In this document: in pieces, positions 6,601 to 58,133 of the stretch
How the letters are laid out: the number at the start of each line of letters is the position of its first letter
Numbering within the stretch: the stretch's first letter is position 1
NCBI GenBank assembly: GCA_000004985.1
Contig: GG738892.1
Source: Naegleria gruberi
Lineage: Eukaryota
DNA: 64,000 bases
Reading direction: 5' to 3' (one strand)
The notes under the pieces: generated by a model
What the model was told of the DNA's origin: nothing
The model's input: the letters and a program-made list of their open reading frames with translations, nothing else
The model's database searches: none
Translations under genes and position numbers: made by a program

Positions 6601-6956
6601 ATTAAATCAGTCAATATAATTCCTCCAAACAAGTAGGCATCCTCAGTATTGAAATATTGTGAACGTTCGGGAATGACTTGAATTTGTATGGAAATCACAT
6701 CACGGGATGGATTTTCTATATCGAGTGTGGTAGAAATAGAGGTTGTATTGGTTTTTAATTGATCGGCAGAAAAACTTTGTTTATGTTGTAGGTGTCGTGA
6801 GGTGTAGATGGAAATTTCCACTTGAGTGGGAGAATAGAGTTGAGTATTGATGGTGTTGAGAAGGTTGGAATCAAATTCCTTGATGCTCGTAGAGATGTTG
6901 ATGAACCCGAGCTGTAGTTCCAGGCTTGTATTTGCTGCCTGTGTTTGTGTGAGCAT
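684..6956 (-). CDS. large multidomain Ser/Thr protein kinase with ankyrin repeats. N-terminal ~1300 aa is uncharacterised with a poly-proline stretch, then ankyrin repeats, then a C-terminal kinase domain (GEGGFG...HRDIKPQN...DFGIAK...SPE). Possible in-frame 66-nt intron at 838..903.
   Basis: Continuous 2090-codon ORF. Kinase subdomains I-XI are readable (GxGxxG, VAIK, HRDIKPQN, DFG, ISPE, DMYSLG, C-terminal RLTAQQLVQ). Ankyrin-like repeats (..G..PL.FA......ELAFILVEKGADVD.). The candidate intron is GTATGT...CAG, 66 nt, with no stop; removing it deletes an odd low-complexity insert (WYVSFSIFLINGLINYSNYYLFS) inside the kinase C-lobe. Confidence 0.8.
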   Translation of the reverse strand: MLTQTQAANTSLELQLGFINISTSIKEFDSNLLNTINTQLYSPTQVEISIYTSRHLQHKQSFSADQLKTNTTSISTTLDIENPSRDVISIQIQVIPERSQYFNTEDAYLFGGIILTDLISLMRDQPTVRKGIFLENMSQSSNVLQIPLICEISSFSAKPKDFGWSKESSGKSKLADFIRSTVYQAKNVQSQHFQQKQTVPNSSQSETNGRFKYLSASQNSKPNRQQVENFSNKIIKVNPFTSDQTPNFDSNMASPNSILQKKLIRYPTMEIKKTIIVSNYFHEFILNFIQRNLQGFKFYLKKQKDTTGLDIYEYNDKSFPNSGQESYFFSYQILQVLNHLLENNQKELFQLWIHAHDFFSSETEMKRENSSGNLSLAGSFASVFDNLEESPKSTPPPSPTNTPPSGSSNFSNGNNKRETNNNHYLNSKYISPDYLRNFLTNDPYVQTFVHNVTFLSSDMFPSVLHSHRGKTFKKLIEDESNELETFLNYVERLHENITSVYEKNHLYMRLSKVLNKQNFVKDVNLKEFLQQNSTDFEFLRYPDLDAIKSVKVLKFIDMLSEKSLEIISHDIRGTDLEPLEFKIADTLLKSSSAKYLKQILDETHDYESKIVSDPKFDRLFEVVPSLFEPFMLPMKTLMAIIDQTMIIFNHGIDAKVTGTYVLKNSTSITNDLMELKMFIKKSEAGSGLYFHNVRYVDYLAYVFSKNHNRLFEILKKTVLNLSKQFDWNRASSWIDSIMERYHGTFFMDIKKRFGFKDNQFSTFLYTIITVMKESMLTKHRQEEVKYLLELIPKELPEHVKNLPLRSVEKLDNPFDNKVIVYKRGIIPPVPIFNPLLIRPVKSKEPTAKRIIAGKMEVYSANQPYLIQYRNKTMDNELIDRNELYYLFLTTSIFIEKTNTDSSFKLISTATSTIKKEENTTTKQVEIPLPPPNINQPIDVKLFIKPTPLEKAIPPPPPPTLFSKASTPKSKSPIPLSKPKSNKMSLRVELEQKLKLFREEDDEEDPGQQTDNIVLGIIEKAVPLYSTFIMHNLPLKHLLSMGNVYMALSESIKRRFPTFNKWLPDKVIGRICLFTTPTSLFILSLVSKQFFVQSHSITWQKEIYSISPSFVGFPALVHMKVKCLIHKHRQNILTLRDCLHNSQNMYQLADLKYRLKGIGFEAMSSIFDNTNALINQLTYLYQEEKQFALIKYFYSYYKLIGALHYEVSKLSTYKLERDILKKICASHIVLICLSKETLPNVSNIPDLGSHPIAVTRNMLKTVSLKYPNVNICMVLSYFYNINETYCSKMFEYCRLWKNINDTILRYKENLLEVEKIFQKEKTSTDGLNKFTGKVNDLLNKTNKVDKSKLVEYENQIIKYLVKCGNYYRYYLTVYDKSGGMSLDEAMFVAIQLNQFEELKELISKGANVNALRKGKDIAAESLRTKNQEMIDYCHLTRIDNIQKSNEKLPVDMNLLLYAIDNKYWPVVEIIARKNKELCFESFRGLRPIDYCIVNSKYPGVELFINAMITDDKNFNVEVLSKACFIAIDYGMTSALKYLVQKEPELATRRTISDIRYQESHYSNPSLILYALRKRSTKSVVTLIEMFPKLLNARLNHGNEAEQAPAKSNSNGKTGLSQLINNGTPLTFAVETNQQELAFILVEKGADVDVKKNGMDLASVAETTENSDMIIWARKLLNKSETYLCYKFEVEYIDNMLNLYRKRFKMVVNYSESVQDFVKKTKLRCGIRGSYELQYYDPDFEEFVDVVDMKDLQLLDDELNLIKLKRVKNTVDSILPQRAGNGRYEQYLGMTLDDRYKIIRIIGEGGFGIIFECQVLNTPEEPNVAIKTIATGKNSIQKPTQDAENEANLVKQLDHQNVVKIYDTFQVDTEHSSMFCIVMELYKGDVMSIISESIKSATTIPLPIIWKIISQTTQALNYVHSQQVMHRDIKPQNIFIRRRDIDSNLIEVVLGDFGIAKENAHTTKNTYAGSLCYISPELLLNQPYGFATDMYSLGVTLYQLLTLDTSTSICSKLIHSEEQWYVSFSIFLINGLINYSNYYLFSFQEMTKAITDHYSNTHNQALLNKLLNIMTRLLKFLPQARLTAQQLVQEVT

Positions 6957-18582: not shown

Positions 18583-20980
18583 ATGAAAAGACAATATGAT
18601 ATGATTAATACTTGTTCTTCTGATCAAGATGAAGATGATGATTGTACAGAAACTTGTTCTTCCGAAGATGAACAATATGAACTTGCTTTAAAATATTTTA
18701 ATGGGACTAATGTTGAAACAAATTATTCTAAAGCTTTCGACTTGTTTTTGAAGAGTGCGGAACAGGGAAAGACAGAATCACAACATCAAATTGGCTATTT
18801 TTATCATTGTGGATTGGTGGTGGAGAAGGATTTATCTAAAGCAATGGAATGGTATCTGAAAGCTGCCGAAAAGGGATTTTCAGAATCACAATTTTCAATC
18901 GGAATTTTGTTTTATAAAGGAGTTGAAGTGGAGTATTCGAAAGCTATGGAATGGTTTTTGAAAGCAGCTGAAAATGGTCTTTCGAAAGCTCAGTGTAATC
19001 TTGCTGCTTTATATGAAAATGGATGGGGAGTTGAACAAGATTATTCGAAAGCTATGGAATGGTATTTAAAATCTGCTGAACAGGAAAATTCAATAGCTCA
19101 ATGTAATATTGGAAATATATTTGCAAATGGAAAGGGAGTTGACCAAGATTATTCTAAAGCATTCGAATGGTATCTGAAAGCTGCTAAAAATGGTGATTTA
19201 ACTGCTCAATCATTTGTTGCATCATCATTTGCAACTGGAAGAGGGGTCAAAAAAGATTATTCTAAAGCATTCGAATGGTATTCAAAAGCAGCTGAAAATG
19301 ATTATTCTCATTCAGTCTACAGTATTGTAAATGGAAAAGGAACAGACAGTGATGCAAAATTCAATCTAGCTTATTTATACGAAACTGGATCAGGTGTTCA
19401 AAAGAACATCCTGAAAGCATTCGAATGGTATATGAAAGCAGCTCAAGATGGTCATCTAAATGCACAATTTTCCATTGCAGGATTTTATAGAGATGGATTG
19501 GTAGTTCAACAAAATTTTTCAAAGGCAGTAGTATGGTATTTGATAGCTGCTGAAAATGGTCATATGGACGCACAGTTCAATGCTGGTTATGCTTTTGAAA
19601 ATGGTTTAGGAGTTCCACAAGATTATTCGAAAGCTATGGAATTATATTCTAAAGCTGCTGAACAGGGGAGTGCACGTGCTGAATGTAATATTGGAAATAT
19701 GTATTTGTATGGGAGAGGTGTTGAAATAGATTATTCGAAAGCTGAGGAACATTTATTGAAGGCCTCTGAAAGAGGTGATGCATTATCACAAGTTAATGTT
19801 GCATATTATTACATGAATGGAGTATTCGATAGAGATTACACCAAAGCATTCAAATACTTTCTTGAGGCTGCTAAAAATGGTGAGCTAACCGCCCAGAATA
19901 ATGTTGCAAAATTATTCGAATTGGGCCTAGGAACTGAGAAAAATTTGAAACAAGCTCTATTTTGGAATTCAAAAAAATTGAATGATAGTTGCAGTTTTCA
20001 ATTTATTGAGGATCCGTATGACCAATTTGCTTTAAAAACTTTCAGACCAGTAATAGACAGCGAGATGAGTTTAATTACAGATTCGAATGAGATGGTGATT
20101 ATTCGATTTGAAACTAGAGATTTTACAATCTTGAAAAACAAGGTGATCACAAGCAAATACTTGACAACAATGATGAATTCTAATTGGATTGGTTTCAATT
20201 CGAAAGGAGAATGGTCAACTTGTACTTGATTTACAAACTATTGAACATGAAATATTTCAGAGAAATGTCAATCACATTGAAATATTTGAGAAATATGTTG
20301 AATACTTGACAAATGATACGATACCATCTAATTTTGATACTAAAATGGAATTAATTGAATTATCAAGATATTTACAGGACGATTCATGTATTTTTAAAAT
20401 TGTGAAATATTCTGACGTTTTGACAAGATTTTACATTTCATTTTATTTTGACAAAACGGAACAGCTTGACATTCCAATAGTTAGTTGTTATATAATGGAT
20501 ACTACATTCAACACGTGCGATATTTCACCTCATGCAATTGAGAAATTATTGACAGGACCTGATTTATCACCAATTGCCAAGAGGAAGATTTTAGATCTAG
20601 TTCCATTAAATAATTTGGGAACCAATTCGACAATATTCGAAGGTAAGTAATCGAATCAAATTTAATTACCAACCAGCTCGATAGATAACAATACAATTCA
20701 CACAATTTTTTCACCAATTGAAGTTAAAAAGGAAATTAGAATTGATACGAAATCAATTATTCTAGAATTAGAAATCGAAGAAACTGGAATGATAATCAAA
20801 AGCGATGATTTGAGTAATTCCCAGATTTACATTCAATTAAATAATGATAATGATCACGTTGGGTTTTGGTTATTGGTCAATCCTGGAAAAACTATTTTGA
20901 AATTACCAAAATATGATTTTGACACAATTGATATGATTATTATTCCAACCGTAACTGCAATACTGGACCAAGAAAATTGA
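18583..20980 (+). CDS. Sel1-like repeat (TPR-like) protein with a C-terminal non-repeat extension. Multi-exon, model uncertain: 18583..~20142, ~20215..20643, 20724..20980
   Basis: There are about 12 tandem Sel1 repeats (DYSKAMEWYLKAAEQG...AQ.NLG.LYENG.GV.QD). The main ORF stops at 20229 but a second frame is open from 20177. A 72-nt candidate intron GTGATC..aaag (20143..20214) joins them in frame. A clear GTAAGT donor at 20644, an 80-nt intron and acceptor gaag|TT lead to a final exon ending at TGA 20978-20980. Confidence 0.55.
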
Positions 20981-21291: not shown

Positions 21292-24200
21292 TTATTTAAA
21301 AACTGAAACTCTGTTGTTAGTCTCCTCACAAATATACAATTCTCCTGTGTGATGATCGACATCAAAACCAGTTGGTGAAAATAATTGACCGTGCTTACTT
21401 CCCTTCTCACCAAATCTCTTGACAATTCTCAAACAACGAGTCTTTCCATTTCTTGGTCCAAGTCTATCAATTAACAAATCATCATAACTTTCAAATTGTC
21501 CCAATTCATCCTTACTCTCCACAAAATTACAATCCTCATAGACATTGATTCGATGCCAATTATGAACTGACAAGTACAAGTATCCTGTAGATCTTTCAAA
21601 ATAAATATAATTGGTGGCCCATTCAATTTCTGGTGAAACACTTAGACTTCTCATATCATGAATTAATTCTCCTTCCCTTGTAAAGACCTTAATGGAACCA
21701 CTTGTAAAATCATAGGCCATTAAATGACCATCATTATTAAAGTCAACTCCCCAACCAGAATTAATTTCCTTAATGGTTCCAATAGTTCTGAGAATTTTAC
21801 CATCATGACTAATAACAGCAATTCTATTATTACACATGTCAGTAACGTAGACATCACTAGTCTCTGGATCGACAGTGAGACATGTTGGAGTAGAAATTTC
21901 ATCTGGATAATCTCCTGCAGATCCTCTTCCTGCTTGCCAAACTTGAACTTTTCCATCCCATGTATATTTGCTGTTTGTGTTGGCATTTCAATTAATTGTA
22001 ATGTAGCAGTAAATGCAATCAATTGTAAGAAAAATAAATAATACATACTAAACCTTATTAGTTGAAGTTCCTGATACAAGCAAAGTCTTATCATTGTAGT
22101 CAAATGCAATAGATCTACTTCCACCTGGAACTGAAAAGTGATACAAATATTTTTTAGTAGCACAATCAAAAACTTGAATTCTACCATTCAAATAATCTGA
22201 AACAAATGCTTGTCTTGTCATGGCATTAATTTTCACATCGTGTGGCAAGCTAAAAAGGCCAGGATCTCTTTGATGTCTAGAGTAATTTCCATACTTGTCT
22301 CCAAGCTTTCCAACATATTCAATCTTTCCAAATAGGCTGAATGTCTTTCTCTTGAAAACCGGTTGAGCAAGAGCTGAGGATTTGGTTGAGTTTGGAGGGG
22401 GCAATTCTTTAAGACCAGTATGGAATTTGGTCTTGTTTGACTTGTTGTGGAGAGTCAAGTGAAGTTCACAGAAATAGGCATCACAATCAGAGCAGTGATG
22501 AGTGGCATTGGTTTTTTCCTCTGCTTCATCAAAACATTTGGTACAATGAGGTACAGAACTTTCCTTCTTCAATTCTACCAAATCATCAACATGGAATTTG
22601 GTCTTGTTTGCCTTATTGTGTAGTGTCAAGTGTTCTTCACAAAAGTGGAGAGCACATGTCTTACAAAAGTGAGTAGCTTGCGTTTGTTCTTCATCATCGA
22701 GACACTTGTCACAGAATCGTTCGCCACTTGAGGAATCATTTGTTTCGGCAAGTGGAATCTTGGTTTCAACTGTTTCAATCAAATTTCCTCTCAAATATAA
22801 ATTAGTAGTGATTAATACATCTTTTCCATCGCCAGCTTGTTCCAACTCAATTGGAATGGATTTTTCATACTTTCCATTTTCTGGAATTAATTGAACTTGT
22901 TCTTCAAATGTTTTTGTGACAAATCTTGTGTCAAATGTAATGACATAGTGTACAGGGTTCGGAGTATACTTTCCATATGGAATTCCAGAAGCATTATTCA
23001 AGGTAATTTTCAATGTTGCTGCCTTTCCTGGTCTGAGAGCAGTTGGATCTTGAGAGATGGATTCAATACTGACAGGATATTGAACCTTAAAAGTTTTTGG
23101 AAGGGTTGAATTGTTAAATGTCTTTCCAAGAAGAGTTGCTTGTGAAATGATGGTAATTTCAGATTCCAAGCCACTACTACCATTCTCTCCTACAGTACCA
23201 TGAAAATCGTGTGGAACGACAATTTCCTCTTGAGGAGCAAGACTTGTATTCAATGTAAAACTTTCCTGACCAGCATTTGGAAGGAATTTGAATTTAGAGC
23301 TAGCCAAACTGGTAAAGCTAATCACTACTCCACTTGGGCATGTCAATTTTCCTTCATTCTTAATTTTGAGACCTGTAATCATGACAGCTTCACCTGGTTC
23401 AATAATTCCATCATTGGTGTTTACATCAGTTGTTTTCAATTCAAAATCTGAAACAACCAAATCATACATTTCACTTGCTTGCTCTAAAACCTGTCCAGTT
23501 TTAGAATCTACAATTACAAACTTCTTAACTCCTGATTGACCAGATTTTGATCCAGGTTCGCCAGCCTTGCCTTCCTGACCAGACTTACCACGATCTCCCT
23601 TTTGGCCATCCTTTCCTTTTTCTCCTGCCTTCTTTCCAGCACCATTTAGTGAGCTAGGATCTCCTCCTGAACCAGCATGTCCACGAGAACCTCCCAAACC
23701 AGCTGATCCAGCTCTACCTTGTTCACCTCCCATACCAGACATTCCTCCTCTACATTCAACTTGTAAAAAGATGAGATATTCTGGGTGGGATGTAGTTACA
23801 ATGACTTGATTGGTTGCATCTCCTCCATTAGCTCCATTTCCACCACTTTAGTTATTATTATTAAATTAGAAATTATTAGAAATAATTTAACAAATAATGG
23901 AAGATGAAAAAACTTACTCTCCACCATTACCTGAATGTCCACCATTTCCTCCTCTGCCACCATTTCCACCATTACCACCACTTCCTCCACTTTCACCTTT
24001 TCCTCCCTTTCCACCATTGCCACCTGATTCATTCAGAGAAGTGAAAAGTAGGGTCAGTACAACTCAATGAAATAGGATAATTAGAAACTTACCACTACCA
24101 CCTTCGCCTCCTGCTCCTCCGTCACCACCTCTACCACCATTTCCTCCATCACCTCCATTAGCTCTGAAAATCAACACGGATTCAGAAGCATCTTTAATAT

Positions 24201-40481: not shown

Positions 40482-40591
40482 TTCTCTTTCAATATTCCAT
40501 TGTAATACTATTAATAATATTTAACTATTTTAAATATTATTTAAAAATTTGTAATAAAGTGGAATCGATTTGGATTCCTTTTAGAAAAAAA

Positions 40592-43292
40592 ATGTCTCAA
40601 CACGAACGATTTAATTTCGATAATTCGGAGGAGGATGATTTAGAATTGATGGAAAATCTTCCTCGTGATGATGAAGATGAAGATGAAACTCTACAAACAA
40701 CAAGAAGAACAAGAATACAAAACGAAGTAAATTATAACTATAACAATAGAAAGAAGGGAATTTCTCAAACTCTAATTCAACCCGTGCTCGGATTATTGTA
40801 CAGAAAACTCATGCTCTTGAAACGCGATTGGAAAAATTCAATCATGATGATCATGTTTCCCTTGCTATTTATTGTATTAATTATATTGAGTCATATATCG
40901 TATAGACAATTATTTAAGAATTCAATGAATCCGTATGAGGCTGGAACGGAAGAGTATTACAAATGGATGGCTGATAATTCGCCTGTTTTCTTGTTGGGTC
41001 AGATGGGTAAACCAAGTAAGGCTGCTTTAATGAGTGATTTTTCGACAATACCAACTGAGAAGGAAAAAACATTTTGCATGGCTATGGTTGCGAATGGCCA
41101 ATTGTTGAAGGATAAGAATGGTAAAAAATTAATGCAAACCATTGAGAGAAGGTTGACTAATTTCATGTCTTTTTATGTGGATTTTAGAACTTTTTCAAGT
41201 ATGATGGAAATGGAAGAGGCAATGAAGAGTTCATCTGAAACTGACTATTATTTTGGAGGATATATTTTCCATCAATTGGATTTTGATTCTATGGATTTTA
41301 ATGTTACTGTCATGTATAAGAATTCAGATATGGCCACTTTGCCAACTCTTTCTCAATTGGTTCAACAAACTATTTTGGATATAGCCAGTGCTCCAAAGCA
41401 GTATAACGAAACAAGATTGGAATCTATTTTCCCATCAATTGGTATCCAATCGATTGCGTTTGGAGATCCAATATCATTGTTATTTTTGGAAAATACTATT
41501 TATTATTTGGTTATTCCAATGGTATTTATTCTTCCTCAAATAGTTTCAAATATTGTTGCTGAGGAGGAAAAGGAAACCAAGGTTCAACTCTTACTCAGCT
41601 CTGTATCAAAGAAAATGTACTGGTTCTCACATATTGTTTTTGATTCCACCCTACTGTTAATTATTTCTCTCATACAAATAATTGGAGGTACATTCATAGC
41701 ACAAGCGAAGGCATTCACAGATAATTCACCATTTGCTTATCTTTCTCTCTATTTATTTTATTCAATTTATTTCTTGACCTTTGCTTACATGTTCAGTTAC
41801 TTTTTCAAGAAGGTTGAAGATTCTCAAAGTGAGTTTTATTAACATTAATTTATTTACGATAATAATTTAAGAATGGTCTGGTTTTATTGTATCACTGACA
41901 GTAGTATTTACTTTCCTTGTATTCAAATTTTTATTTGGATACGAGACTAGTATGGCACTCAAGATTTTCTTGTGCTTTGTCATTCCTGGTTGGAATCTTT
42001 TTTACGGACTTTCAATTTTAGGACTTGCTGCTTATAATGGAACACCAATTTCATTCCTTGACATTATTTTATTTAGAAATCATGGATCTGAGATGTCTGT
42101 ATTATTGATTGTTATTATCATTTCGAGTCTTTTGAATGTTTTTGTAATGCTATCTCTTGAATACTTTGAATATTTGAAGAGAAAGCCAAATTCTTGGATT
42201 AACAGAATTATTCCTTCCTTTATTAGAAGAAAGGTACAAATGGACACTAACGAATTACCAGTTAGTGAAGTTGAACTCCAAGAAATGATTGAAAAATACT
42301 CTAATGCAGACGAAATCTTTGGTGAGAGTGAAGAGGAATCATTGGGAGGATATTCTCTCCTTGTGGAAAACGTTTTCAAATGGTATGGTGACTATTGCGC
42401 TCTTAAATCGGTCAATTTAGGGGTAAGGAAAGGAGAAATTTTTGGCTTGCTTGGTAAGAATGGTAGCTCAAAAACAACCCTATTGAAATGTATTTGTGGA
42501 TTGTCTGGAATTAGTAGAGGAAAAATATCAATTAATGGTACAAGCGTTTTTGAGAATTTCTCTGCAGAACATAGTTTGGGTGTCTGTCCTCAAAATAATA
42601 GATTGTATGAGAATTTAACAGTGTGGGAACATTTAAAGACCTATCATTTAATTCGTGGAACCTATTCCTTTGCAAATGTAACCCAATGCTTGAATACTTA
42701 CAAATTTGCTCCAGAAGATGCCAACAAAACTGTAAAGGAATTATCAGGAGGTATGAAACGTAAATTATCAGTTGCTTTGGCATTCATTGGTTCTGCTAAT
42801 TTGATTCTTCTCGACGAGCCTACATCATCTCTGGATGTTGCTACCAGAAGAGTTATTTGGTCAATTATCAAACAAATGCAAGAAAGTCACTCTATCATTC
42901 TAACTTCTCACTCTATGGAGGAAACAGAACATTTATGTAATAGAATTGGTATTATTGTTGAAGGTAAGATGGCAACAATTGGAACAAAGAATGCTCTCAA
43001 AGACAAGTATGGAAAATTCTACAAGGTCGTTATTACCAACTATGATGAAGACAATGTGGAAAGAACAAACGACTTTGTGAGAAATACTTTTGGAGAAGAG
43101 AATGTTCGCTTATTGAATCAAGTTGGAAGAACTCAAACTTTCGAAGTGTCTAACTCCATACCAATCTATGAAATCTTTGGAGAAATTAATTCACATTTGG
43201 ATGAGTATGGAATTGAAGATTATTCTGTCAGTAACACAACATTAGAGCAAGTATTTTTGAACTTTTCAAATGTTGGAGTTGTGAAAAACTAG
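40592..43292 (+). CDS. ABC transporter, TMD-NBD half-size (ABCA-like), 2 exons: join(40592..41828,41872..43292)
   Basis: The first ATG is at 40592 (the track start at 40559 is GTG). The TMD carries an ABCA-like LLKRDWKN motif and a large loop after TM1. Donor caaa|GTGAGT, a 43-nt intron and acceptor ttaag|AA continue the TM region. The NBD has Walker A GLLGKNGSSKTT, signature LSGGMKRKLSVA and Walker B ILLDEPTSSLD. Confidence 0.7.
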
Positions 43293-46200
43293 ATTAATTC
43301 CTGTTTTATTTCCATTAACGATTGCAAATTGTTGAATGACTGCATTTTAGAGTAGAGAATAGGACATTCGAGAGATAGGCATTTTTGCTCCATGGAAAAG
43401 CTAGAGTTTGGCAGTAAACCATTTGTCATATCCAGACTATGATTACAATATCTACAGAGTTCTTTTAGCTCGTTTAAACGCTTCTCTGTTGCTCTCCTTC
43501 TTAATAATAAAATAAGAGGATAACTATTGCAATCAGAACATAATAAATCTACGGTAACATCCTTCTTTGAGCTGTCAATAATCTTTCCACAACTTGAGCA
43601 AGGCCTACTCAAAGGTTGGAAGTATTGTTCAATAAAGTTTTTAGACTTTCTAAATACTTGCTTTCTCCAATCAGCCAACAAGTAAATATCCTTCTTTGGT
43701 AAATTAGTGTACCAAATATTACAATTTACAAAACTAAGCGAAAATAATCTGTCTATTGAGGGAAGTAACTGTCTTGTAATATAATAATTGTAATGAATTC
43801 GGTATTTTTGTTTGTAATTTTGAACTTGATTCATTCTGTCCTCGATGAAATATTTGGGGTGAATGACCATGTCTGAGAGTTTGGCTTTAGCTGGATTCAG
43901 TGAACTAAAAACAACTACATAGGGAACTCTTTCATTAAATCTTGGCTCTGCTCTTGGATCACGTTGCATTTCTCTGACTGCAATTCTTGCAGATGGTGGA
44001 AGATGTCTCTCCGACTTGTAATAACCCAATTTGACCTTTTTCCAGAATATGAAATCTTGCAACGAGCACTTTTCTGAAATTATTCTATAGAATTGCCTTG
44101 ATAAATATGCTTTCACTCTGGAAAAGTCCAATGATTCGAATAATATTTCCAAACTCTTTTCCATTAAAGATCTTACCATTAAACAATTATCTCTTCTGAC
44201 AGCCTCTATGCCTTTACAAAAGAGTGTTCCTTTAGTTTGTGCTGGGCTCTCATATGCCATCCCTACATATCTCTTCTTACTCACCAAATATGACGGATGG
44301 AATACTCTTTCCATTTGTAAAGTAATTGGTCTTGGATTTGCATTGGTAACGTGCTTGACAATTTCCTTTCCAAGTTTGAATGCTTCCTCTCGAGTTGAAT
44401 TTATACATTCCACAAATAAAGAGTCAGTATCTCCGTAAGCAATTCTACACTTGCCTGGAAATTTTTCATTTACAATATCAATGGCATTCTCGAGAGTAGC
44501 TCTAGCCAGTTGCACAATAGCATCTGCAAGATCAGAGAGTGGCATTCTACCAGAAAAATTTGCACTGGTATAACCATAGGTAACGTTGGCAATCAGTTTC
44601 AAACCAAGCTGTCTTGCATTTAAAATTCTTTGAGTTTCTTTATCATCCTTGCTAGTTTCCTTCATAGCTTGTTTAACCATAATTCTAGTATTCAAAATTT
44701 CAGAGCACATTCTTGGTAGAACACCTTGTCTTACGTTTGGCTTGACAAATAGGCATTGATTAGGCGTTATGAAAATGTCCTCTTCTATTGAATCCGATCC
44801 TGTTCTATCCTGGAGTAACTTCCTCAACTCGTTATTAGGTTCATAGTTTTCCAGAGTTCCTAGCTTTGTTTTCTTCCTATCCACAAATGCCAACTTTCCA
44901 AGACATGTACTGTAGCACAAATTATAGGCAATTATAATGGATGGATAAAGTGATTGAAAGTCCAAGACAATCATTGGATTGGTGTAGAGTTTGCTTTGGG
45001 GCTCCATAACCAGTGGCAAGCATTCAATGGCTGCTTGTTCCATAACTTGTTTTCTTGTTGGGGAAAGAGCAACATAATTCCTCAATCTGGCCAATCTCAA
45101 CATCATGCTCTCCACTCTGTACTGACTTCCTCTACTTATAACAGAAAAGAACTCAATTCCATAAACCTTTCCCAACTCTCCCGTTCTATTCAAAATATCC
45201 AAATGGTTTAGTACCTCGAGGGTCACACTCGTTTTAATCAGATAATATTGAAGAATAACCCTGTACTCAAAACTATCTTTTTCGTGTGAGCATGAGTGTG
45301 AAAGATCGGTGAGAGTTTGATGTGAATAGAATGGAATTCTCCTTCCCAAAACATTAAAAACCACATTGTGAAGGGTATACATGTCCAGTTTAAGCTCTCC
45401 ATTCATAATTCTCCATACATTCATAACGACTCTTCCTTTAATCATCACTCCAGACTGTTTGTTTCTTGCGTATTCCTGTGCCTTCTTTAAGGCCTTTTCT
45501 CTTTGGAAGTTATTGGAGGTGTTGGTGGCCTTTTTCTTATCAACTTTTGGTTTATCACTTTGAAAATTGGCAACTCTAGAAATTTCAAAGCAAACATTTC
45601 TTCCCATCACGAGAAATCCTCTTTCTATGAGATAACCCAATCCTTCAGTTTGAATTTCATAACCCAATAAAATATCTGGGTCGACCTTACAAAGTACATC
45701 AATAAATCCTTCATACAGGTCTTTTTCATTTTTAAATTCTATAACTCTATCAAAATGTGTTGGGAAAGCAAGAGGTCTCTGAGCAGCATCATCTGCTTCC
45801 ATTTCTCTATTGACAAGTAGCCAATGCTCCAAACTCTCAGCAATATTCGCACAATTCTGGTAAGTGATTACTATTGTTTGAACTGAGTCATAGAGTGGAT
45901 TAGGTAGAAACGTTGCTCTCGTTAAAACGTGACATTCAATACACATGACTGATAGGTTTTGCTTGGACACCAAATCTTTCTTTTTCTTATTATCTCTAGG
46001 TATTGCTGCCTCGTCGAAAGCAATCTTTTTTCTCTCACTCATAACAGATAATTCTGACAAGAGGGATTGATATTCTGGAGCTCTATTCCTGAGAGTATTA
46101 GGTGTGTTATTCAGGGAGAGTAATTTCCTAGCTGTGAGTGAGGAAGCAACATCCAATATTGGTTCGTCATACTGTGGAGATAGTGGTCTGTGTATTTCTT

Positions 46201-49200
46201 CGATATCGGCTATTACTGGCTTTTTCTCTTGAGATAACTCTTCATAAACCATCGATAATGAAGGTGGTTTGGGAGCAAAATCTAGAATAAGCTTTCCAAA
46301 CTTTTTGTGAACAGGTCTTTCAATAGGATTTAGTTTTGATTTGAAATTTAGAAACGGTAATTCCTTATAATCTTTGCTCTTGGGCATTTCTTCGTTCAAT
46401 TTTTTCTTTCCAAATATCGAAGAAAATCTAATTAGACTACTTCTTTTGCTTTCCAAATAATCGTCATGTGAACTAAAAAATGGATAATTTTCCATTTGCC
46501 TTATCAATCCTTTATAAGCAATAGCTGACTCATGCAGTTCATTCTCCAATGCTTCAATAGAGGGTGGTTCCTTAAAGTCCAAAATTAGGTTTCCGCTTCT
46601 TACCACCGAAGAAGAATCTGTTTCATTTAAAGTTACAACAATTGGAGATGTTTCGTTGGAGATTGTTGTAATTGCTGATGGTTCGAACTTTTCCGAAGGT
46701 GGTGAAATGTCAATCATTGGAGGTGTTAGTTCCACATTGAAAACCTTTTCCAAGAACTCTTCTTCCTCTTGTTGTACTTCAGGTTGTTCCTCTTCTGCAA
46801 TGGTAGGTATGATAATTGGTGATTGGAAGGGAGAATTAACTTGTTTAGCAATATTAGATGCCAAAGGAGGGCTAGTCTCAGTAGGCTCCTCTTGTATTAT
46901 TGGAGGAGTAGGTTGAATCGATGAAGAGGAACTCGAGTTTGCTGCAAAATTAAACCTATCTGGATCAAAGCTTTCCAAAGCTTGTTCCATCATGAGTGTT
47001 GAGACTGTAATATCTTCAGAAGGTTTATCTTGGGGCAGATGCTTTGCTTGACTAAAGAAATTGTCAAAAAAGAAATTATCATTGGTAGATTGAGGTGTGA
47101 CTTCTGTTTCACTTGGCTGCTCTTCGTCTGCGAAGGATATTTTTCGTTTCTTTGCTGGCAGTAGAACTTTCCTTTCATAGTTTTGCAAAATTTGTTTTGA
47201 TTCTGATGACAGAGGTTTGTATTCATCTTTCCTTACTGAATATTCAAATCTGCAAAAGAAGGTATCCTCATTGTGGTCAGTGAACTCCTCGGGAAGACTT
47301 GTCTGGTCATACAGGGAGCTTGGCATTTGCACATTTGGTGGCATATTCCTAAAGTAATCGTCTACCACCAAAACTTTGCATTTCCCAACAACAGTTTCGA
47401 AGGGATTGGTATCAGATTGTGAAATTAGGAAAATTTCACTTACTCCTGTCCAATCTCGAGCTCCAGTTTTAGTTTCTTCTGGTCTGTAGAACCACCTGAC
47501 TTGTATTGTCTTTTTTTCGTTATTCTTATCAAGAATACATGCAATATAAGGTTTAGAGTTTTTAGGAGCTCTCATATAGACAAAATCTCCAATATTTACA
47601 GATTCAATGGTGATACGCTTGTTTTGCTTTCTTGATTTAGTTTCAGGATGCGTACCATCAAACTGAGGAATAAATTCAACAACATCCTCACCCTCACTAT
47701 CAGATGATACATTCCACTCTTCATCTGAAACTTGTTCTTCCTCTTCATCGACGTGGAATATTTGTTCGTTACCAGAGAAAACTTCCTTCATTGAGTTGAG
47801 CATTTCTTGCTCGTCTTGAATCAGGGAATCTTCACTCTCCTCCTCTTCATTATCTTCTTCATCCTCTTGGTAATCTCCCAAATTATTATATTCATCCTCC
47901 TTCAATTCAAAATCCTTGTCTCTCATCCAATTCAATACATTTTCCAACTCTAAATCTCCCTGTGTTAGTTGAATATTAAAAAGTGCATTACCTTGCCCAA
48001 AGTATGAGTTGTCTCGAGAGGCTAGATAAATTTCTTTAATTTCTTCATAGGTCTGAAAGGCTGTTGGAAATTTTGAAAGGAAATCATTCAGCTCTTGTTG
48101 TGATTTTTTGAGATTTGAGTCTTGTTGCTGTGGAGTTGCCGATTTTTGACTGAAAGCTTTTGGTAGTTGACTTGTCAGAATTAGAGATTCATTTTCTTGC
48201 TCAACCTGATGTTTTGCATCATAGTTATCATCTCTATTCATATTTTCAACTATTTTCATCAAATTGTCATACATGTATCCTTCCAATTCATTTTGTGGTC
48301 TTTTTTCTTGCCTCTCAAAGGGTGAACATGGAATGAATGGTTGAGAAGCCTTCTCCAAAGATCGCCTTCTTCTCCTTTCTTCTTCCCAAATAACATTAAG
48401 AGATCGAATCAATTTTCTTTCCTTTCCAAAAGACTCTTCCTTTTCATCCTCTAACGAAAGTTGCAAATCCACAATATCTTTTCTATTCATTACATCCCTC
48501 GAAAAGGCGTCCATTTCAATTTCACATTTAGACAATCGTTTGACATTATCTGGAAGAATGGTACCGTATTGAATGGCATTCTGACTTGAAATTTTGTCAG
48601 CAGCCATATCATCCCGAAACGAATTGAATGGTAAACGAAAGTACAACTTTTCCACACTCAAATCACCCATACCATACAAATTATAGTCCATCATAAATTG
48701 AAGAGGGAATGGGATATGTGCTTCGTAGACTGAAAAACGATGACCCATCACAGTTCCATTCCCAAACATGGCTGCCATCTTTCCAACATGACTCGGATTG
48801 TACACATAAACCTTTAGAAATAACTTGTGATTGAACCAATAACCATAAAATGGTTTTCCAGAAACTAGTACAATATCATGAACAAATTGTCTCGGGTGAA
48901 TGTGAAATGAAGGCTGTTGTTGTGGATTATTCTTCAATGTCCTTTCGTATTGATTGAGAGTGTGTCCAAAAAGAGATTGATGAAAGGTATCTTCAATACT
49001 TGCTCCCAAAACTGAAATGAATTGATTAACTTTTTTCATGTCCATATTTTGATAAATGCTTGTTAAATCATCACTATCATCATTATTACTACTATTAATA
49101 TTACTATTATTTTGATTAGAATTTGATGAAAATAATTCATGAGGAAACGACAACATAAAGTACGGATACAATTGATGAACATGAAGACAAGCCTTTTGTT

Positions 49201-49348
49201 TTGTTTCCTGCACTGTGCCATACACGTGCATAATTGGCACTAAATCTATTTGTCTATTTGCAAAAAACCAACACTTCCTATCATCAAATAACGCCTGTGG
49301 AGTACACATCGAATACTCGAGCGATAGAATTTGAATATTGACGACCAT
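43289..49348 (-). CDS. REV3: DNA polymerase zeta catalytic subunit (REV3), 2019 aa, with an embedded BAH-like domain
   Basis: Single ORF with an ATG start. B-family polymerase motifs (DxxSLYPSII, KxxxNSxYG, YGDTDSLFV) and the C-terminal CysA/CysB metal-binding modules (CSSCG...CSDCN; CRYCNHSL...CLSLECP). The N-terminal MVVNIQILSLEY...HVHQLYPYF matches the REV3/Pol-delta N-terminal domain. See findings for the BAH segment. Confidence 0.9.
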   Translation of the reverse strand: MVVNIQILSLEYSMCTPQALFDDRKCWFFANRQIDLVPIMHVYGTVQETKQKACLHVHQLYPYFMLSFPHELFSSNSNQNNSNINSSNNDDSDDLTSIYQNMDMKKVNQFISVLGASIEDTFHQSLFGHTLNQYERTLKNNPQQQPSFHIHPRQFVHDIVLVSGKPFYGYWFNHKLFLKVYVYNPSHVGKMAAMFGNGTVMGHRFSVYEAHIPFPLQFMMDYNLYGMGDLSVEKLYFRLPFNSFRDDMAADKISSQNAIQYGTILPDNVKRLSKCEIEMDAFSRDVMNRKDIVDLQLSLEDEKEESFGKERKLIRSLNVIWEEERRRRRSLEKASQPFIPCSPFERQEKRPQNELEGYMYDNLMKIVENMNRDDNYDAKHQVEQENESLILTSQLPKAFSQKSATPQQQDSNLKKSQQELNDFLSKFPTAFQTYEEIKEIYLASRDNSYFGQGNALFNIQLTQGDLELENVLNWMRDKDFELKEDEYNNLGDYQEDEEDNEEEESEDSLIQDEQEMLNSMKEVFSGNEQIFHVDEEEEQVSDEEWNVSSDSEGEDVVEFIPQFDGTHPETKSRKQNKRITIESVNIGDFVYMRAPKNSKPYIACILDKNNEKKTIQVRWFYRPEETKTGARDWTGVSEIFLISQSDTNPFETVVGKCKVLVVDDYFRNMPPNVQMPSSLYDQTSLPEEFTDHNEDTFFCRFEYSVRKDEYKPLSSESKQILQNYERKVLLPAKKRKISFADEEQPSETEVTPQSTNDNFFFDNFFSQAKHLPQDKPSEDITVSTLMMEQALESFDPDRFNFAANSSSSSSIQPTPPIIQEEPTETSPPLASNIAKQVNSPFQSPIIIPTIAEEEQPEVQQEEEEFLEKVFNVELTPPMIDISPPSEKFEPSAITTISNETSPIVVTLNETDSSSVVRSGNLILDFKEPPSIEALENELHESAIAYKGLIRQMENYPFFSSHDDYLESKRSSLIRFSSIFGKKKLNEEMPKSKDYKELPFLNFKSKLNPIERPVHKKFGKLILDFAPKPPSLSMVYEELSQEKKPVIADIEEIHRPLSPQYDEPILDVASSLTARKLLSLNNTPNTLRNRAPEYQSLLSELSVMSERKKIAFDEAAIPRDNKKKKDLVSKQNLSVMCIECHVLTRATFLPNPLYDSVQTIVITYQNCANIAESLEHWLLVNREMEADDAAQRPLAFPTHFDRVIEFKNEKDLYEGFIDVLCKVDPDILLGYEIQTEGLGYLIERGFLVMGRNVCFEISRVANFQSDKPKVDKKKATNTSNNFQREKALKKAQEYARNKQSGVMIKGRVVMNVWRIMNGELKLDMYTLHNVVFNVLGRRIPFYSHQTLTDLSHSCSHEKDSFEYRVILQYYLIKTSVTLEVLNHLDILNRTGELGKVYGIEFFSVISRGSQYRVESMMLRLARLRNYVALSPTRKQVMEQAAIECLPLVMEPQSKLYTNPMIVLDFQSLYPSIIIAYNLCYSTCLGKLAFVDRKKTKLGTLENYEPNNELRKLLQDRTGSDSIEEDIFITPNQCLFVKPNVRQGVLPRMCSEILNTRIMVKQAMKETSKDDKETQRILNARQLGLKLIANVTYGYTSANFSGRMPLSDLADAIVQLARATLENAIDIVNEKFPGKCRIAYGDTDSLFVECINSTREEAFKLGKEIVKHVTNANPRPITLQMERVFHPSYLVSKKRYVGMAYESPAQTKGTLFCKGIEAVRRDNCLMVRSLMEKSLEILFESLDFSRVKAYLSRQFYRIISEKCSLQDFIFWKKVKLGYYKSERHLPPSARIAVREMQRDPRAEPRFNERVPYVVVFSSLNPAKAKLSDMVIHPKYFIEDRMNQVQNYKQKYRIHYNYYITRQLLPSIDRLFSLSFVNCNIWYTNLPKKDIYLLADWRKQVFRKSKNFIEQYFQPLSRPCSSCGKIIDSSKKDVTVDLLCSDCNSYPLILLLRRRATEKRLNELKELCRYCNHSLDMTNGLLPNSSFSMEQKCLSLECPILYSKMQSFNNLQSLMEIKQELI

Positions 49349-52924: not shown

Positions 52925-55900
52925 TTAAAGCTCCATAAGTACGTTTTGTCTTCTCCACAATTCTCTAAACATATCCTCACTAATAAGAACTTGACCACCA
53001 TGAGCAGCTGCTTCAATTCTTGCAGAAGTATTAATGGTTGTTCCATAATAATCTGGTCTTCTCATAGTCTTGTCAAATATTTGTTCTGCTTGCCCAAAAT
53101 GAAGACCAATCCTAACTCGCAATCCATTCCAAATTAATTCCTTTGTCTTTTCATTCCATTGAGTTCTACAATCCCATTGTTGAAGTAATTCAGGAGGCCA
53201 ATTACATGCCATCAAATCATGTTGACAGGCAATACTCCAATCCAAAGCATCGACAGCACTCTTGAATACCACATAAAAACTATCACCATTTGTCTTGACC
53301 TCAAATCCTCTGAAGGCTTCCAAATTCTTTCTGAGAACTTCATTGTGTAATTTCAAAGCTTCTCTCATGGCCTTGGCATCAGCTTCCCAAAGAACAGTGC
53401 TATTTTGAACATCTGTGAATGCACAAGCAATATTACCAGTCTTTGGAGCATATGTTGTGTTTCCTTGTCTTGTCTTGAGATATCTCCAATATATGATACC
53501 AATACATCCTAGAATTGAGAAGAATATTACAAGAGATAGAACAATCATTGCAATTTGAAGCTTAGTGACTGCTGGTGGAACAATGGCAACTCCACATGTA
53601 CTAAATGAAAAATCAAAGGAAATATCAGTGAATGAAGTTGTACCATTCTCAACATTGAGAGAAGAGAGCAAAACAGATCGAGGTCCTTGATTGCAATCAC
53701 AAGAGCTACTTGCTGATGAATAACTAGTTGCACAATCACCTGTTGCAACAGTGATATTGGCTACATTATTAGTTGAGGAACATTCCAAACCAAATGGGCC
53801 CATAGTTGTTAGTCCAGCAATATCGTAAACATAATTTGAAAAGATTGTACTGAAGAAATCAGGTAAGGTAACAGTGGAGGTAAATTTTTCTTGATAAATT
53901 CTGGTAAAAACAGTTTCCAAAAAGAAACCAAACAGGTAACCTTCCAATGTTTCATGAGTTGCTGGTTCAGAATATTGGTAATTGGCTAAAAATTGATTGA
54001 TAAATGTCTTTTTCTTTTCAGATTGAATGGTTTCAACACTGCTACAGACAGATTCCTGTTTGACAACTGGAGCAATATTGATTCTAGGCACAATGAGGAA
54101 ATTTGTGGACATGTCAGGATGTTTGGTATATAAATTATTCAATCCCTTTTCAAACAGTAAACTATAGGTCTCTGAAGGAATAGCAATCTTGATGGTCGGA
54201 TTAAAACTGAGAATAGCCTCAATCCAAGATATTGATTCTGTTTCATGAGCAAGAATAATGACTGCCTCAATATTTTGATTGGAAAGTTGGATTGCAGTTG
54301 AGGTTGGATTACTCACAACATCAAAAACTTCCAATCCAACATCATAATTCTCAATATATTCCTTAATGGATGGTATTGTTTTTGTTGTATAATATCCAAT
54401 TGGTGAATAGAGAATTGAAGCTTGTCCGTAGGTTTGCTTAAAATATTTCATTTGGGCAATTACTTCATCAAATACTGATGGTCTCCAATTAATAAAGTAT
54501 TTAGAGTATGGTTTTCTATATTCTAGCGAACCAGCCAAGACAAACATTGGAATTTGATACTTTTTCAAAATATCCGTCACATTTCCATATTGATCAACAC
54601 TCAATCTCAAATTACTTCCAAAAAAGCCAAATACACCCTGTTTTGTGGAAAGGGATTGTAACTTGTATTCGAGACCATATTTCTCAACTTCTCCAGAAAA
54701 ATATTCTGTGTGAATTTCAATTTTTTGAGATGCTTTGGAATTGTAAACAGTGAGATAGGTTTGAAGACCTCTTGAATAGGCATCATATGAATGAGGTGCC
54801 TCAGATATCAAATCCAATTTTCCTGCCTTTGTGGAACTGTCATCATCATAGGGAATAAGACGACCGAATATAATTGGTTTTGAAATTACACTAGAAATGG
54901 AATCTGCCAATCCACTTCTTCTATAGGTTCCCTTATAATCTTGGAATGCACAAGAAGCTGTATCATATTGTTTGGTAAATGTCTCAGTAAAAACAGATCC
55001 GGAATAGGAGTATAAAAACCCAGTTCTCAATCCCAAATTACATGGATTGGTGGCAGATTTAGAAAACGCTCCAAAAGTTATACCAGTTTCAGATTCCTTA
55101 ATTACAGATTGAGTATAGACATAATCCATAAACGATTTTTTGGTAATTTGATTTCCCACTGTATCCACTATTGTGGTAATAAATTTTCCAATATAATAAC
55201 CTTCCAAAGTTCTTTTGTGTGCCCAAACTGATGAATCCGAAGGATAGTAATCCTTGATTACCTTGTTAAACTCTGTAACAAATGAATTTGAGCTTGATGA
55301 AAATGATGGGATGTGAGAAACATAGAAAACTTGGAATGGAGAGGATGGATTCACGTTAGCTGCTAAGAATGATTTCATCTTGGTTTCTACATGATCAGAA
55401 AAATAAGAATTAATCAGATAAATACTCAATCCCTTTCTGAAAACTGGATTGGTTGTGTAGGTGAGCTGAATCTTTGAAAGTATAGATACAATGCTATCAT
55501 AACTATCAAAGAGAGTAATGAGTAAAACTTGTGGATTGGCATTACTAGTCAATTCATCAATGATTGTATCCAATGATTTAAGGCCTGAATCTGAATTGAT
55601 GATAGAAGATTGACTGTCAATATTCAAATTAATAATATTCATCATGGTGGAAAATGTTTGGAAAGCTTCACTTGAATACGGGCAATCAGGTTTGTAAATA
55701 ACACTCATTCTAGATTGAGCTTGTTTCATACTATAAGTAATTAAAGTTCCCAATTGTTCTGTCAATGTCAAGTGTAAATTCATAACAGGAGAATAGAACG
55801 AGCTCCTAAGAGTTCTCAAATTTGTAGCAGCAATCACACTAGCAATATCTGAATACTCACTGTTTTGTTTGATATCAAGAGTTTGTGCATTATTAATTCC

Positions 55901-58133
55901 ATCCAAATTGAGTACACCCTCTGTGAAACCAACCAATGCAACAGATTCATGCAAATTCTTTAATTCTCTTGTGTTGAAGAGAAGTGAACTAGAATCGTTG
56001 TGATAAAGAGTTTTCAATTCGATTTGCAATTTGTCAGAGGAAACTTTGGAATTTCTTCTCTTGAAAGCAGCTTGAATTCCCTTTCTTAACATTTCATCTT
56101 GAAGATTTTCTTTTTCAATGGATTGACCAAATATTATTGGTTTCTTGAGAATGGATGTATCTGAAATGCAAGATCCATATTCGTACCATGAAAGTTGTTT
56201 AAAAACTGAGAATGAAACATTGGAAACGTATGGTGTTTTTCCAATATTAACAGAACTCAAATAAACAATCTTGAGTCCTTGATTGCAATTTGAAGCACAA
56301 CTAACAGATGTTGCATTGGCAGAGAATGGTAAATATTGATCATAGACATTGGCACTTTCACACCATTTGAAATTGACCTTGGTTCCATCAAAAACAAATG
56401 AACCACCATTATTAGTCTCAGAATTACCTGCAGTATAATCAATGTAAGATGTTGCAATAAAATTTGATCTTGTTAAATCACCTATAATAGTTTTGAGCAT
56501 TGAATAGGCAAGCTTTCCAGTCAAATAACCCTCGAGTTCAATAAATGTTGGTTGAAAGGTAGAAACGTCCTTTCCAGTTGCTTTCAGATAAGCCTTTCTA
56601 GCTCTGTGATAAGACCTCACAACTGGTACTGTCAAATCCATTGGACTCGGCACGACTTGTGAAATGATAACATTATCCGTATAATATGTCGATGCAAATT
56701 TTAAAGAAGGCAAAGGGGATTGATTCAAATCATCAGTCAGGGCAGCACTTCCAACAAAACTAACTGTCAAGAATATCATTTCACTTGCCTTTTCATATCC
56801 GTAATTTGTTCCGTTAGCAGAGAAGGCCACATTCTTTACCATTTTGATATATTTTGAAAGTGGAGCATACGTTCCAACAAGTACAATTGCCTCAGGATTA
56901 CACTTTCCAATCGTATAGAAGGCATCTTCAACTGCCAATGTATTTCTAGTGTACAGACCTGTAGAGCAGAGTGAAATGTTCATTCGTGAGACGAGGGATC
57001 TGTTAATTCCGTTAAAACCAGCAATACCAAAGGCATCATTCTGATACATGATACTAATTCTTCTGATGAGTTTGGTATTTACAAGCCAATCAACCATGGC
57101 AGCAGTTTCATCATCATACGAAGCTCTCAAATTAATAACATTTGGATAGAAAGGTGTTCTAAGCCAACCAACTCCAGTGAATGAACCAAGAAGTGGAATG
57201 GAAGTTTTAGTAACATCTGGAAAGACTGCACTAACAGTTGGTGTTCCTATTATATCAATATTCAATTCATTAATAACATGTATATGGAGGAATAAATAGG
57301 TGATGATGGTAGTTTAGATTAAATAAGAACAGAGGAACTGTTACTACTTACCAACATATCCAATTAATCCAAATATTTTACTAACATCTACACTTGTAAT
57401 AAATTGAGGAGATGATGAGTTAAGGTAAGGCTGATAAATAAGCGAGCTGGTAGGGGGTGTTGTATTATAGAGAAAGAAGTCGGTATTAATCTTTGTATTG
57501 GTAGGCTCATAGGCATCATCTAATTGTACAATTTTATCACATGTTTACATTATTTTCATCGTTCATGTATTCAATGTATTCAATACCCAAAACATAATAA
57601 TATAAATTAAATACCGACCGAACAACAATATTACATACCCAAAGTTAAGAGTTTCAGCTTTTTGTTATTCCAAACTCCTCCCATAGAATTAACTTCTTCA
57701 AAAGCCGCTAAAATTCCATCTCTCATTTCAGTTCCCAATCTAAAGTAACAATATCATGAAGAAAGAAAGTATATTAAGGGAATTTCAAAAATAATTACAT
57801 GTTCTTTCCAATGCATAGAACTTACTTTTTAGAAAGGCCAGTGAGTGGAGCTGACTGTGCAAACCATATTTCCTGTTCGTTATTCCACAGCACAGTGTCT
57901 TCCCAAGGTCGTTTCGGCGATATTGCTGTTGTTGACGACGAGCCGTTCAGTTCGACCATTATTAAAAGTGTTACTAGGAGGAGGATTGATATTGTTGTGA
58001 TGAAGGAAGAGTAGAATGCTCTGAAATGTTGCTGTTGTGGTCTTCCTCTTGCTGCCTGATGATGAGAATGAGGTAGGCTGTTAGAGAGGCACTTGGCCTT
58101 ATTTAACCTCAATATGTCCACTCGTTGTAGCAT
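52925..58133 (-). CDS. receptor-type class III adenylyl/guanylyl cyclase with a signal peptide, periplasmic-binding-protein (ANF-receptor/LivK-like) ectodomains, one TM helix and a C-terminal cyclase domain. At least 4 exons: join(52925..57246,57349..57519,57629..57729,57826..58133). The 3' end possibly continues in another frame to 52668.
   Basis: Exon 1 is ATG (58131-58133) ...FITTISILLLVTLLIMVELNG (signal/anchor) ...WEDTVLWNNEQEIWFAQSAPLTGLSKK | GTAAGT. Exon 2 is LGTEMRDGILAAFEEVNSMGGVWNNKKLKLLTL (PBP-type motif) | GTATGT. Exon 3 is DDAYEPTNTKINTDFF... Exon 4 is the 1446-codon ORF containing the TM helix LQIAMIVLSLVIFFSILGCIGIIYW and the cyclase core IACAFTDVQNSTVLWE...FEVKTNGDSFYVVF...IWNGLRVRIGLHFG...YYGTTINTSARIE..GGQVLISEDMF. 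The domain order mirrors kinetoplastid receptor adenylate cyclases. The exon 3 donor is ambiguous: the phase argument favours gtaa|GTAGTA over ttg|GTAAGT. Confidence 0.65.

Follow-up and report, generated by a model that had tools for sequence, protein, structure and literature searches.

Why DNA polymerase zeta (Pol zeta) is needed for normal mammalian proliferation is debated, and one proposal, a role in heterochromatin replication, comes from an HP1-binding motif present only in vertebrate REV3L. In mouse and human, REV3L reaches pericentromeric heterochromatin via this PxVxL motif, which binds HP1 dimers; the motif is vertebrate-specific, without counterpart in invertebrates and fungi, and cells that lose REV3L show disturbed replication of their heterochromatin (PMC8561639, Ben Yamin et al. 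2021). Here we describe the REV3 gene of Naegleria gruberi, which encodes the Pol zeta catalytic subunit with an additional bromo-adjacent homology (BAH) domain. The gene lies in a stretch of 64,000 nucleotides (NCBI GenBank assembly GCA_000004985.1, contig GG738892.1), called the window below, and coordinates refer to this stretch unless another contig is named.

Among the BAH readers of histone H3 trimethylated at lysine 27 (H3K27me3), PtSHL holds the mark in an aromatic cage formed by Tyr41, Trp63 and Tyr65, and clamps H3S28 with His88 and Asp90; the cage by itself leaves the mark open and the flanking contacts set the specificity (PMC6013494). The BAH histidine stacks on H3P30 by a CH-pi contact and hydrogen-bonds to H3S28, acting as a K27 selectivity filter (PMC13068663, a review). 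SHL/EBS and AIPP3 in plants and BAHCC1/BAHD1 in animals are transcriptional repressors, whereas the host of the domain described here is a DNA polymerase. Canonical REV3 from yeast, plants, fungi and animals is made of an N-terminal domain, an inactive exonuclease-like domain, the B-family motifs and a C-terminal zinc-finger/Fe-S module, and the Naegleria protein is built likewise. A literature search found no paper on a BAH domain in REV3 or Pol zeta, and we know of no described translesion polymerase whose catalytic subunit carries a histone methyl-lysine reader domain. The presence of the domain as such was already on record, since public databases assign PF01426 to Naegleria REV3 by automatic annotation, and the practical stakes of such a lineage-restricted domain fusion are modest. 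What is new is the conserved and lineage-restricted character of the insertion, its assignment to an EBS/SHL-like subclass bearing a predicted cage, and the parallel with vertebrate REV3L and HP1.

A BAH domain within REV3

The N. gruberi REV3 gene is complete and made of a single exon (43289..49348, minus strand; 2019 codons and a stop), as judged by the list of open reading frames (ORFs), the translation and Pfam, and its 6060-nt ORF runs without interruption within the window. The protein contains a REV3-type N-terminal domain, an exonuclease-like domain and polymerase motifs A, B and C, and all named matches among the 120 listed (E <= 1e-182) are Pol zeta catalytic subunits, indicating that it is REV3 and not Pol delta or Pol alpha. 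Residues 583-713 (47210..47602, minus strand) match the Pfam BAH profile PF01426 with 64.2 bits (E 1.3e-17) for a gathering score of 30.8, covering profile positions 2-120 of 121, and the excised segment alone reaches 66.6 bits. An AlphaFold2 model of this segment, computed from a 69-sequence BAH alignment, is mostly beta-strand, with a mean predicted local distance difference test (pLDDT) score of 85.4 and values above 95 in the core. The top 50 Foldseek matches of the model in the PDB are all BAH domains (probability 1.00), as expected for the distorted beta-barrel of this fold. One variable loop of 26 residues lies inside the domain (residues 669-694; 47267..47344, minus strand); its model confidence is low (pLDDT 59-67) and it is poorly conserved, with 35% identity in N. 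lovaniensis and 15% in Willaertia.

Altogether, the profile match and the predicted fold confirm that segment 583-713 is a genuine BAH domain. The original prediction had proposed a BAH-like domain at 47200-47640 and had named a PF01426 search and a structure prediction of residues ~540-720 as ways to check it; the significant match, above the gathering score, and the confidently folded segment both bear the proposal out. The peptide quoted there (RITIESVNIGDFVYMRAPKNSKPYIACILDKNNEKKTIQVRWFYRPEETK...YFRNM) is identical to residues 578-668 of the minus-strand ORF. It comes from the reverse strand, the plus-strand translation of 47200-47640 having stops throughout.

An exhaustive HMMER search with the BAH segment among 1.84 billion representative proteins gave 199 matches, which were examined by Pfam scans and name look-ups. 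The same order of N-terminal domain, BAH, exonuclease and polymerase was found in N. lovaniensis (P0002), in Willaertia magna (P0121, P0270) and on two contigs from uncultured eukaryotes, L001 (P0137, SRR32315890) and L002 (P0141, JGI 3300062347). The comparisons below are made between the five BAH-containing REV3 (BAH-REV3) of N. gruberi, N. lovaniensis, Willaertia, L001 and L002. The two Willaertia proteins, of 2075 and 2134 amino acids, are 97% identical and come from separate contigs; their genes are alleles, or else one is a recent duplicate of the other.

When 158 REV3 proteins were scanned with the BAH hidden Markov model with filters off, six matched (two from Naegleria, two from Willaertia and two environmental) and the other 152 did not, the best E value among these being 0.62. 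In the precomputed Pfam annotation of the 120 and 103 REV3 matches listed, PF01426 appears on no protein other than the two from Naegleria. The absence of BAH elsewhere holds among the sequences retrieved: N. fowleri REV3 was not part of them, and the alignment-based search (103 REV3) missed Willaertia, P0137 and P0141. In metagenomes, the BAH alignment gave 19 pattern matches, none of which was confirmed as a relative, and no BAH was detected in any frame of 40 metagenome loci carrying the REV3 N-terminal domain, 9 of which span the whole interval from this domain to the catalytic part. Canonical REV3 is thus without BAH in 0/152 proteins and 0/9 environmental loci that cover the inter-domain region. 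These searches support a lineage-specific REV3 insertion that is lacking in plant, fungal, animal and oomycete REV3, in agreement with the original prediction, which knew of no such domain in yeast or vertebrate REV3.

A mis-assembly, or a gene model fusing a separate BAH gene with REV3, would give the same picture. Such an artefact can be ruled out for practical purposes, because the N-terminal domain and the BAH domain share one ORF in five assemblies: the window holds a single uninterrupted 6060-nt ORF, and the same single-ORF architecture is found in four other independent assemblies. In N. lovaniensis the gene is one exon of 6009 nt. The Willaertia ORF at 1206-3473 of contig L043 holds the motifs SFYGFH, QFMIDYNVYGM, LDWM and IPQMDG together with the BAH motifs, and in L001 and L002 the N-terminal and BAH domains lie in a continuous ORF whose only intron falls inside the polymerase domain.

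Origin and maintenance of the insertion

The insertion point is identical in all five proteins. An in-register alignment places the BAH start ~20 residues downstream of an IPQxDG landmark in each of them, which reads IPQFDG in N. gruberi (residues 560-565; 47654..47671, minus strand). A motif scan found [IVL][PA]QxDG in 87 of 140 REV3 proteins, including those of plants, early fungi (chytrid-like, Mortierella) and vertebrates. Since this landmark is widespread but is followed in plant, chytrid, Mortierella and vertebrate REV3 by low-complexity sequence and no BAH, the alignments indicate that IPQxDG is an ancestral REV3 landmark and that BAH is an insertion downstream of it. The alignment of REV3 orthologues, also among the checks named in the original prediction, agrees with this, as the segment is not part of the region common to all REV3 proteins. 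A second landmark, LNWM (residues 472-475; 47924..47935, minus strand), is invariant in the five BAH-REV3; plant REV3 contains a related LLSW[LM] at equal spacing (motif scan), and in both plants and Naegleria an L-x-W-[ML] motif stands ~90 residues upstream of IPQxDG. No function assigned to either landmark is known to us. An acidic and probably disordered linker (residues 479-560; 47669..47914, minus strand; 35 D/E in 82) lies directly N-terminal to BAH. The original prediction had placed BAH after the N-terminal domain and before an acidic spacer; the first part stands, but the order of the second is reversed, the main acidic stretch being N-terminal to the domain.

In a neighbour-joining distance tree of 26 taxa, restricted to 838 columns of the exonuclease and polymerase domains, the five BAH-REV3 form a clade with 92% bootstrap and L002 groups with Naegleria and Willaertia at 72%, in a sampling without other Discoba or Amoebozoa, with few SAR (stramenopiles, alveolates and Rhizaria) or other protists, and from which two fragmentary sequences were removed. 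The best non-self matches of the L001 and L002 BAH domains are the Naegleria REV3 BAH domains. With one insertion point, a clade of the catalytic domains and these best matches of the L001 and L002 BAH domains, the data fit a BAH domain acquired only once, in a lineage to which the vahlkampfiid amoebae belong.

Compared with N. gruberi, the BAH core is 64% identical in N. lovaniensis and 49% in Willaertia; for the linkers on either side, the values are 32-48% and 24-28%, respectively. As synonymous sites are saturated between N. gruberi and N. lovaniensis, we give nonsynonymous divergence (dN) by region and no dN/dS: it amounts to 0.25 for the BAH core, 0.24 for the N-terminal domain and 0.25 for the exonuclease domain, and to 0.61 for the linkers and the BAH loop, i.e. 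2.5-fold above the BAH core. Across the five proteins, 18 positions of the BAH segment are invariant, with the N. gruberi segment sharing only 31-54% identity with the other four. Since its dN equals that of the N-terminal and exonuclease domains and is far below that of the linkers, the sequence comparison indicates that the BAH domain is being maintained. One could propose that the domain is a functionless relic of a past insertion, given the variable loop that breaks it up and the change of a key histidine in N. gruberi (see below). Such a relic is very improbable in view of the constraint on its core, of the 18 positions kept in five divergent proteins and of the confidently predicted fold.

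Predicted ligand of the BAH domain

A sequence search of the PDB with the BAH segment (HMMER) gave PtSHL (E 3e-13), PBRM1 BAH1 (5.3e-13), EBS (1.8e-11), BAHCC1 (1.6e-09), rice ASI1 (3e-08), AIPP3 (7e-07) and TNRC18 (2e-04), followed at a distance by ORC1 (0.007) and DNMT1 (0.1). With the predicted structure, Foldseek ranked SHL and EBS first (E ~1e-11), then PBRM1 BAH1 (ranks 5-8), BAHCC1, AIPP3, ASI1 and TNRC18, so that both approaches place the solved relatives in overall the same order. The nearest non-REV3 proteins in the scan of 1.84 billion proteins include plant EBS-like BAH-PHD proteins. By sequence and by model, the closest solved relatives are therefore the H3K27me3 readers SHL, EBS, BAHCC1 and AIPP3, together with PBRM1 BAH1. 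The original prediction had compared the domain with ORC1, Sir3 and DNMT1. These BAH domains share the superfamily and the fold of the REV3 domain (Foldseek E ~5e-08), but they are much more distant in sequence, and an ORC1/Sir3/DNMT1-like subclass is rejected by the similarity ranking. The REV3 domain also differs from SHL/EBS-type readers by the lack of an adjacent PHD finger and by its extra 26-residue loop.

Equivalences with the SHL cage were taken from the HMMER alignment to 5znp and 5z8n only. In this alignment, Y601 (47546..47548, minus strand) corresponds to PtSHL Tyr41 and is invariant in the five BAH-REV3, and W619-F620-Y621 (47486..47494, minus strand), in the WFYRPEE motif, provides the predicted equivalents of Trp63 and Tyr65. 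W619 is invariant both in the five BAH-REV3 and in 69 aligned BAH domains. The Y621 position is a tyrosine in four of the five proteins and a phenylalanine in L002, so that the three predicted cage positions are aromatic in 5/5. The SHL pair His88-x-Asp90, which contacts H3S28 and H3P30, aligns with Q644-S645-D646 (47411..47419, minus strand). D646, the aspartate expected in the H3K27me3 subclass, is invariant in the five BAH-REV3 and nearly so in the 69 BAH domains. The same Tyr/Trp/Tyr positions and aspartate are aligned in SHL/EBS, AIPP3 and BAHCC1/BAHD1. The K27-selecting histidine of the subclass is absent at the aligned position of the N. gruberi BAH, where it is replaced by a glutamine (Q644, codon CAA), and the position is a threonine in L002; N. 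lovaniensis (SHCDT) and Willaertia (SHKDS) have retained the SHL/EBS-type histidine. According to the alignment, the predicted methyl-lysine cage would thus be fully conserved and the K27-specific filter only partly so, and the specificity for H3K27me3 is uncertain in N. gruberi because of Q644. The L002 domain (P0141 residues 548-690; L002 7700-8260), with its phenylalanine at the third cage position and its threonine at the histidine position, is the most divergent of the five and has an extra insertion of ~16 residues before the S-x-D motif.

We favour, with belief and doubt in about equal parts, a functional BAH domain that was inserted once and works as a built-in histone methyl-lysine reader taking Pol zeta to repressive chromatin. 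That the domain binds histones, which mark it would read and where this would send the polymerase are all inferred. In such a scheme, the ancestor of Naegleria, Willaertia and the two uncultured relatives would have gained the BAH domain in the disordered stretch that separates the N-terminal domain from the putative Rev7-binding motifs and the catalytic part. The Y601/W619/Y621 cage would take trimethyl-lysine in the ARKS context of the H3 tail, i.e. H3K27me3 and/or H3K9me3, with D646 holding the next serine in place. The domain lies between two flexible linkers of >100 residues each, a layout that suggests a reader on a flexible tether joined to an otherwise ordinary Pol zeta, and this tethering would concentrate the complete polymerase on repressive chromatin. 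The original prediction had likewise suggested that the insert may tether translesion synthesis to chromatin, which is a reasonable reading of the conserved cage residues. Pol zeta could there help to replicate, or to bypass lesions in, chromatin that is hard to replicate. The lysine 9 and lysine 27 marks of H3 both stand in an ARKS context. In N. gruberi, the target would be the H3K9me3+H3K27me3 state on transposable elements (TEs), as heterochromatin of this species was described as one such state found exclusively on TEs (bioRxiv 10.1101/2025.03.17.643675). Since both marks share the ARKS context and are both on TEs, a cage reading either of them would lead to the same TE heterochromatin.

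Several points weigh against a methyl-lysine reader of this kind. The loss of the K27-selecting histidine in N. gruberi and L002 is one of them, and PBRM1 BAH1 is about as similar to the domain as SHL is, in sequence and with Foldseek. PBRM1 BAH1 is, to our knowledge, not an established methyl-lysine reader. In addition, heterochromatin of N. gruberi was described in a preprint, with antibodies raised against the histones of other species (bioRxiv 10.1101/2025.03.17.643675).

These points would suit a BAH domain that is functional without reading methyl-lysine, as a general nucleosome or protein-protein docking module comparable to Sir3/Orc1 (nucleosome face), Rsc2/PBRM1 or MTA1. It could keep Pol zeta on chromatin of any kind, or bind a partner from among remodellers, replisome components or repair factors. 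Known ligands of BAH domains include the nucleosome core, other proteins and histones without modification (PMC13068663). A docking module of this type is the main alternative, although we find it doubtful: each of the five proteins has an aromatic residue at every cage position and the same partner aspartate, and the first cage position, which is a histidine in PBRM1 BAH1 (PHIVCI), is a tyrosine in REV3 as in SHL/EBS. Such a strict conservation of solvent-exposed Y/W/Y residues is hard to account for without a methyl-ammonium ligand. Another explanation could be that the cage reads a different mark, e.g. H4K20 methylation as metazoan ORC1 does, or a methylated non-histone protein, linking Pol zeta to replication- or damage-associated chromatin instead of TE heterochromatin. 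The missing histidine filter would allow this, since flanking contacts and not the cage alone set the mark (PMC6013494), and the ORC1 BAH bound to H4K20me2 (4dow) is still a significant structural match (Foldseek E 4.5e-08). We consider it improbable, as the sequence match to ORC1 is far weaker than those to SHL and EBS and as the aspartate pairing with the ARKS serine is invariant.

A role of Pol zeta in heterochromatin has a precedent, because vertebrate REV3L is targeted there via HP1 (PMC8561639). Like the Naegleria protein, vertebrate REV3L has a lineage-specific insert between the N-terminal domain and the catalytic part, and a heterochromatin enrichment of Pol zeta is proposed in both cases. 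The vertebrate link is indirect, going from PxVxL to the HP1 chromoshadow dimer and then to H3K9me3, whereas Naegleria REV3 has its own predicted reader fold. P-x-V-x-L has no match anywhere in the 2019 residues of N. gruberi REV3, and an HP1-type route was rejected for this protein on that ground. The two inserts arose independently, and by analogy the BAH domain may represent an independent and more direct route to the same chromatin. In its most specific form, which we put forward tentatively and hold to be less probable than its opposite, the Pol zeta of the Naegleria lineage would be recruited directly by the BAH cage to H3K9me3/H3K27me3 TE chromatin, as a one-protein analogue of the REV3L-PxVxL-HP1 system. 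If the strongest version were true, an error-prone polymerase on TEs would raise their mutation rate and provide a mutagenic layer of transposon control. The independent presence of a chromatin-reader fold in the same REV3 region of a distant protist lineage gives comparative support to the view that cells benefit from a link between Pol zeta and repressive chromatin, and Naegleria REV3 offers a simpler, single-polypeptide system to study this coupling.

Other features of REV3 and neighbouring genes

The N-terminal domain of N. gruberi REV3 covers residues 1-330 (48359..49348, minus strand; Pfam REV3_N 4-58, POL3_N 107-188) and is 66% identical to that of N. lovaniensis. The B-family exonuclease-like domain (PF03104, DNA_pol_B_exo1) spans residues 1122-1329 (45362..45985, minus strand), and the polymerase domain DNA_pol_B (PF00136, 308 bits) residues 1400-1870 (43739..45151, minus strand). 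Motifs A (DFQSLYPS, 1463), B (KLIANVTYGY, 1584) and C (YGDTDS, 1638) are all intact, so that N. gruberi REV3 looks like an active enzyme. A C-terminal C4 zinc-finger/Fe-S module (PF14260, zf-C4pol) occupies residues 1917-2001 (43346..43600, minus strand) with 31.3 bits for a cut-off of 28.9, and its cysteine pairs or clusters are visible in the sequence.

Between BAH and the exonuclease-like domain, a basic patch, KKRK (residues 733-736; 47141..47152, minus strand), resembles a nuclear localization signal and lies just past BAH; it is kept as KKRK in N. lovaniensis and as RKKRKKKK in Willaertia, and may serve as such a signal. The ~200-residue stretch C-terminal to BAH is rich in S/T/P/Q/N (90 of 203 residues). 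Further on, two candidate Rev7-binding motifs are conserved in the five BAH-REV3: RSGNLILDFKEPPSI (residues 917-931; 46556..46600, minus strand) and GKLILDFAPKPPSLS (residues 1018-1032; 46253..46297, minus strand). They are two copies of (N/K)LILDF(x2-3)PPS(I/L), ~100 residues apart, with LILDF..PPS at residues 921 and 1020, and they resemble the Rev7-binding consensus of REV3L, which likewise has paired motifs. The interval between the two copies contains a block, PFFSxHxDYLExKRSSxIRFSSIFGKK, conserved in all five proteins.

The annotated N. gruberi protein (P0001, 'ATREV3; DNA binding protein-like') is 100% identical to the window ORF. Its public gene model (1980 amino acids) begins at Met40 of this ORF, and the REV3_N domain is thereby missing. 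The 39 further codons up to the upstream ATG (residues 1-39; 49232-49348, minus strand) complete Pfam REV3_N (4-58), and the N-terminus of N. lovaniensis REV3 aligns with them. The annotated protein is probably truncated at its N-terminus.

Downstream of REV3, a convergent ORF with an ABC-transporter ATPase domain (41952-43292, plus strand) ends on the same palindromic CTAG (43289-43292) as the REV3 ORF; the TAG stop codons of the two overlap, and their 3' untranslated regions must therefore overlap too. This ORF adjoins another with an ABC-2 membrane domain (40559-41842, plus strand), and both (40559-43292) probably belong to a single ABC transporter gene, as exons with a short intron between them. 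On the minus strand, a 1446-residue ORF (52925-57265) combines an N-terminal periplasmic-binding-protein-like domain with a C-terminal adenylate/guanylate cyclase domain, as in a receptor-type cyclase. A 2090-residue ORF (684-6956, minus strand) ends with a protein kinase domain and ankyrin repeats; over its first ~1500 residues, Pfam gives no match at E <= 1e-5. The window also encodes a 564-residue protein with DUF7932 (22048-23742, minus strand) and a 548-residue Sel1-repeat protein with 7 repeats (18583-20229, plus strand; 348 bits).

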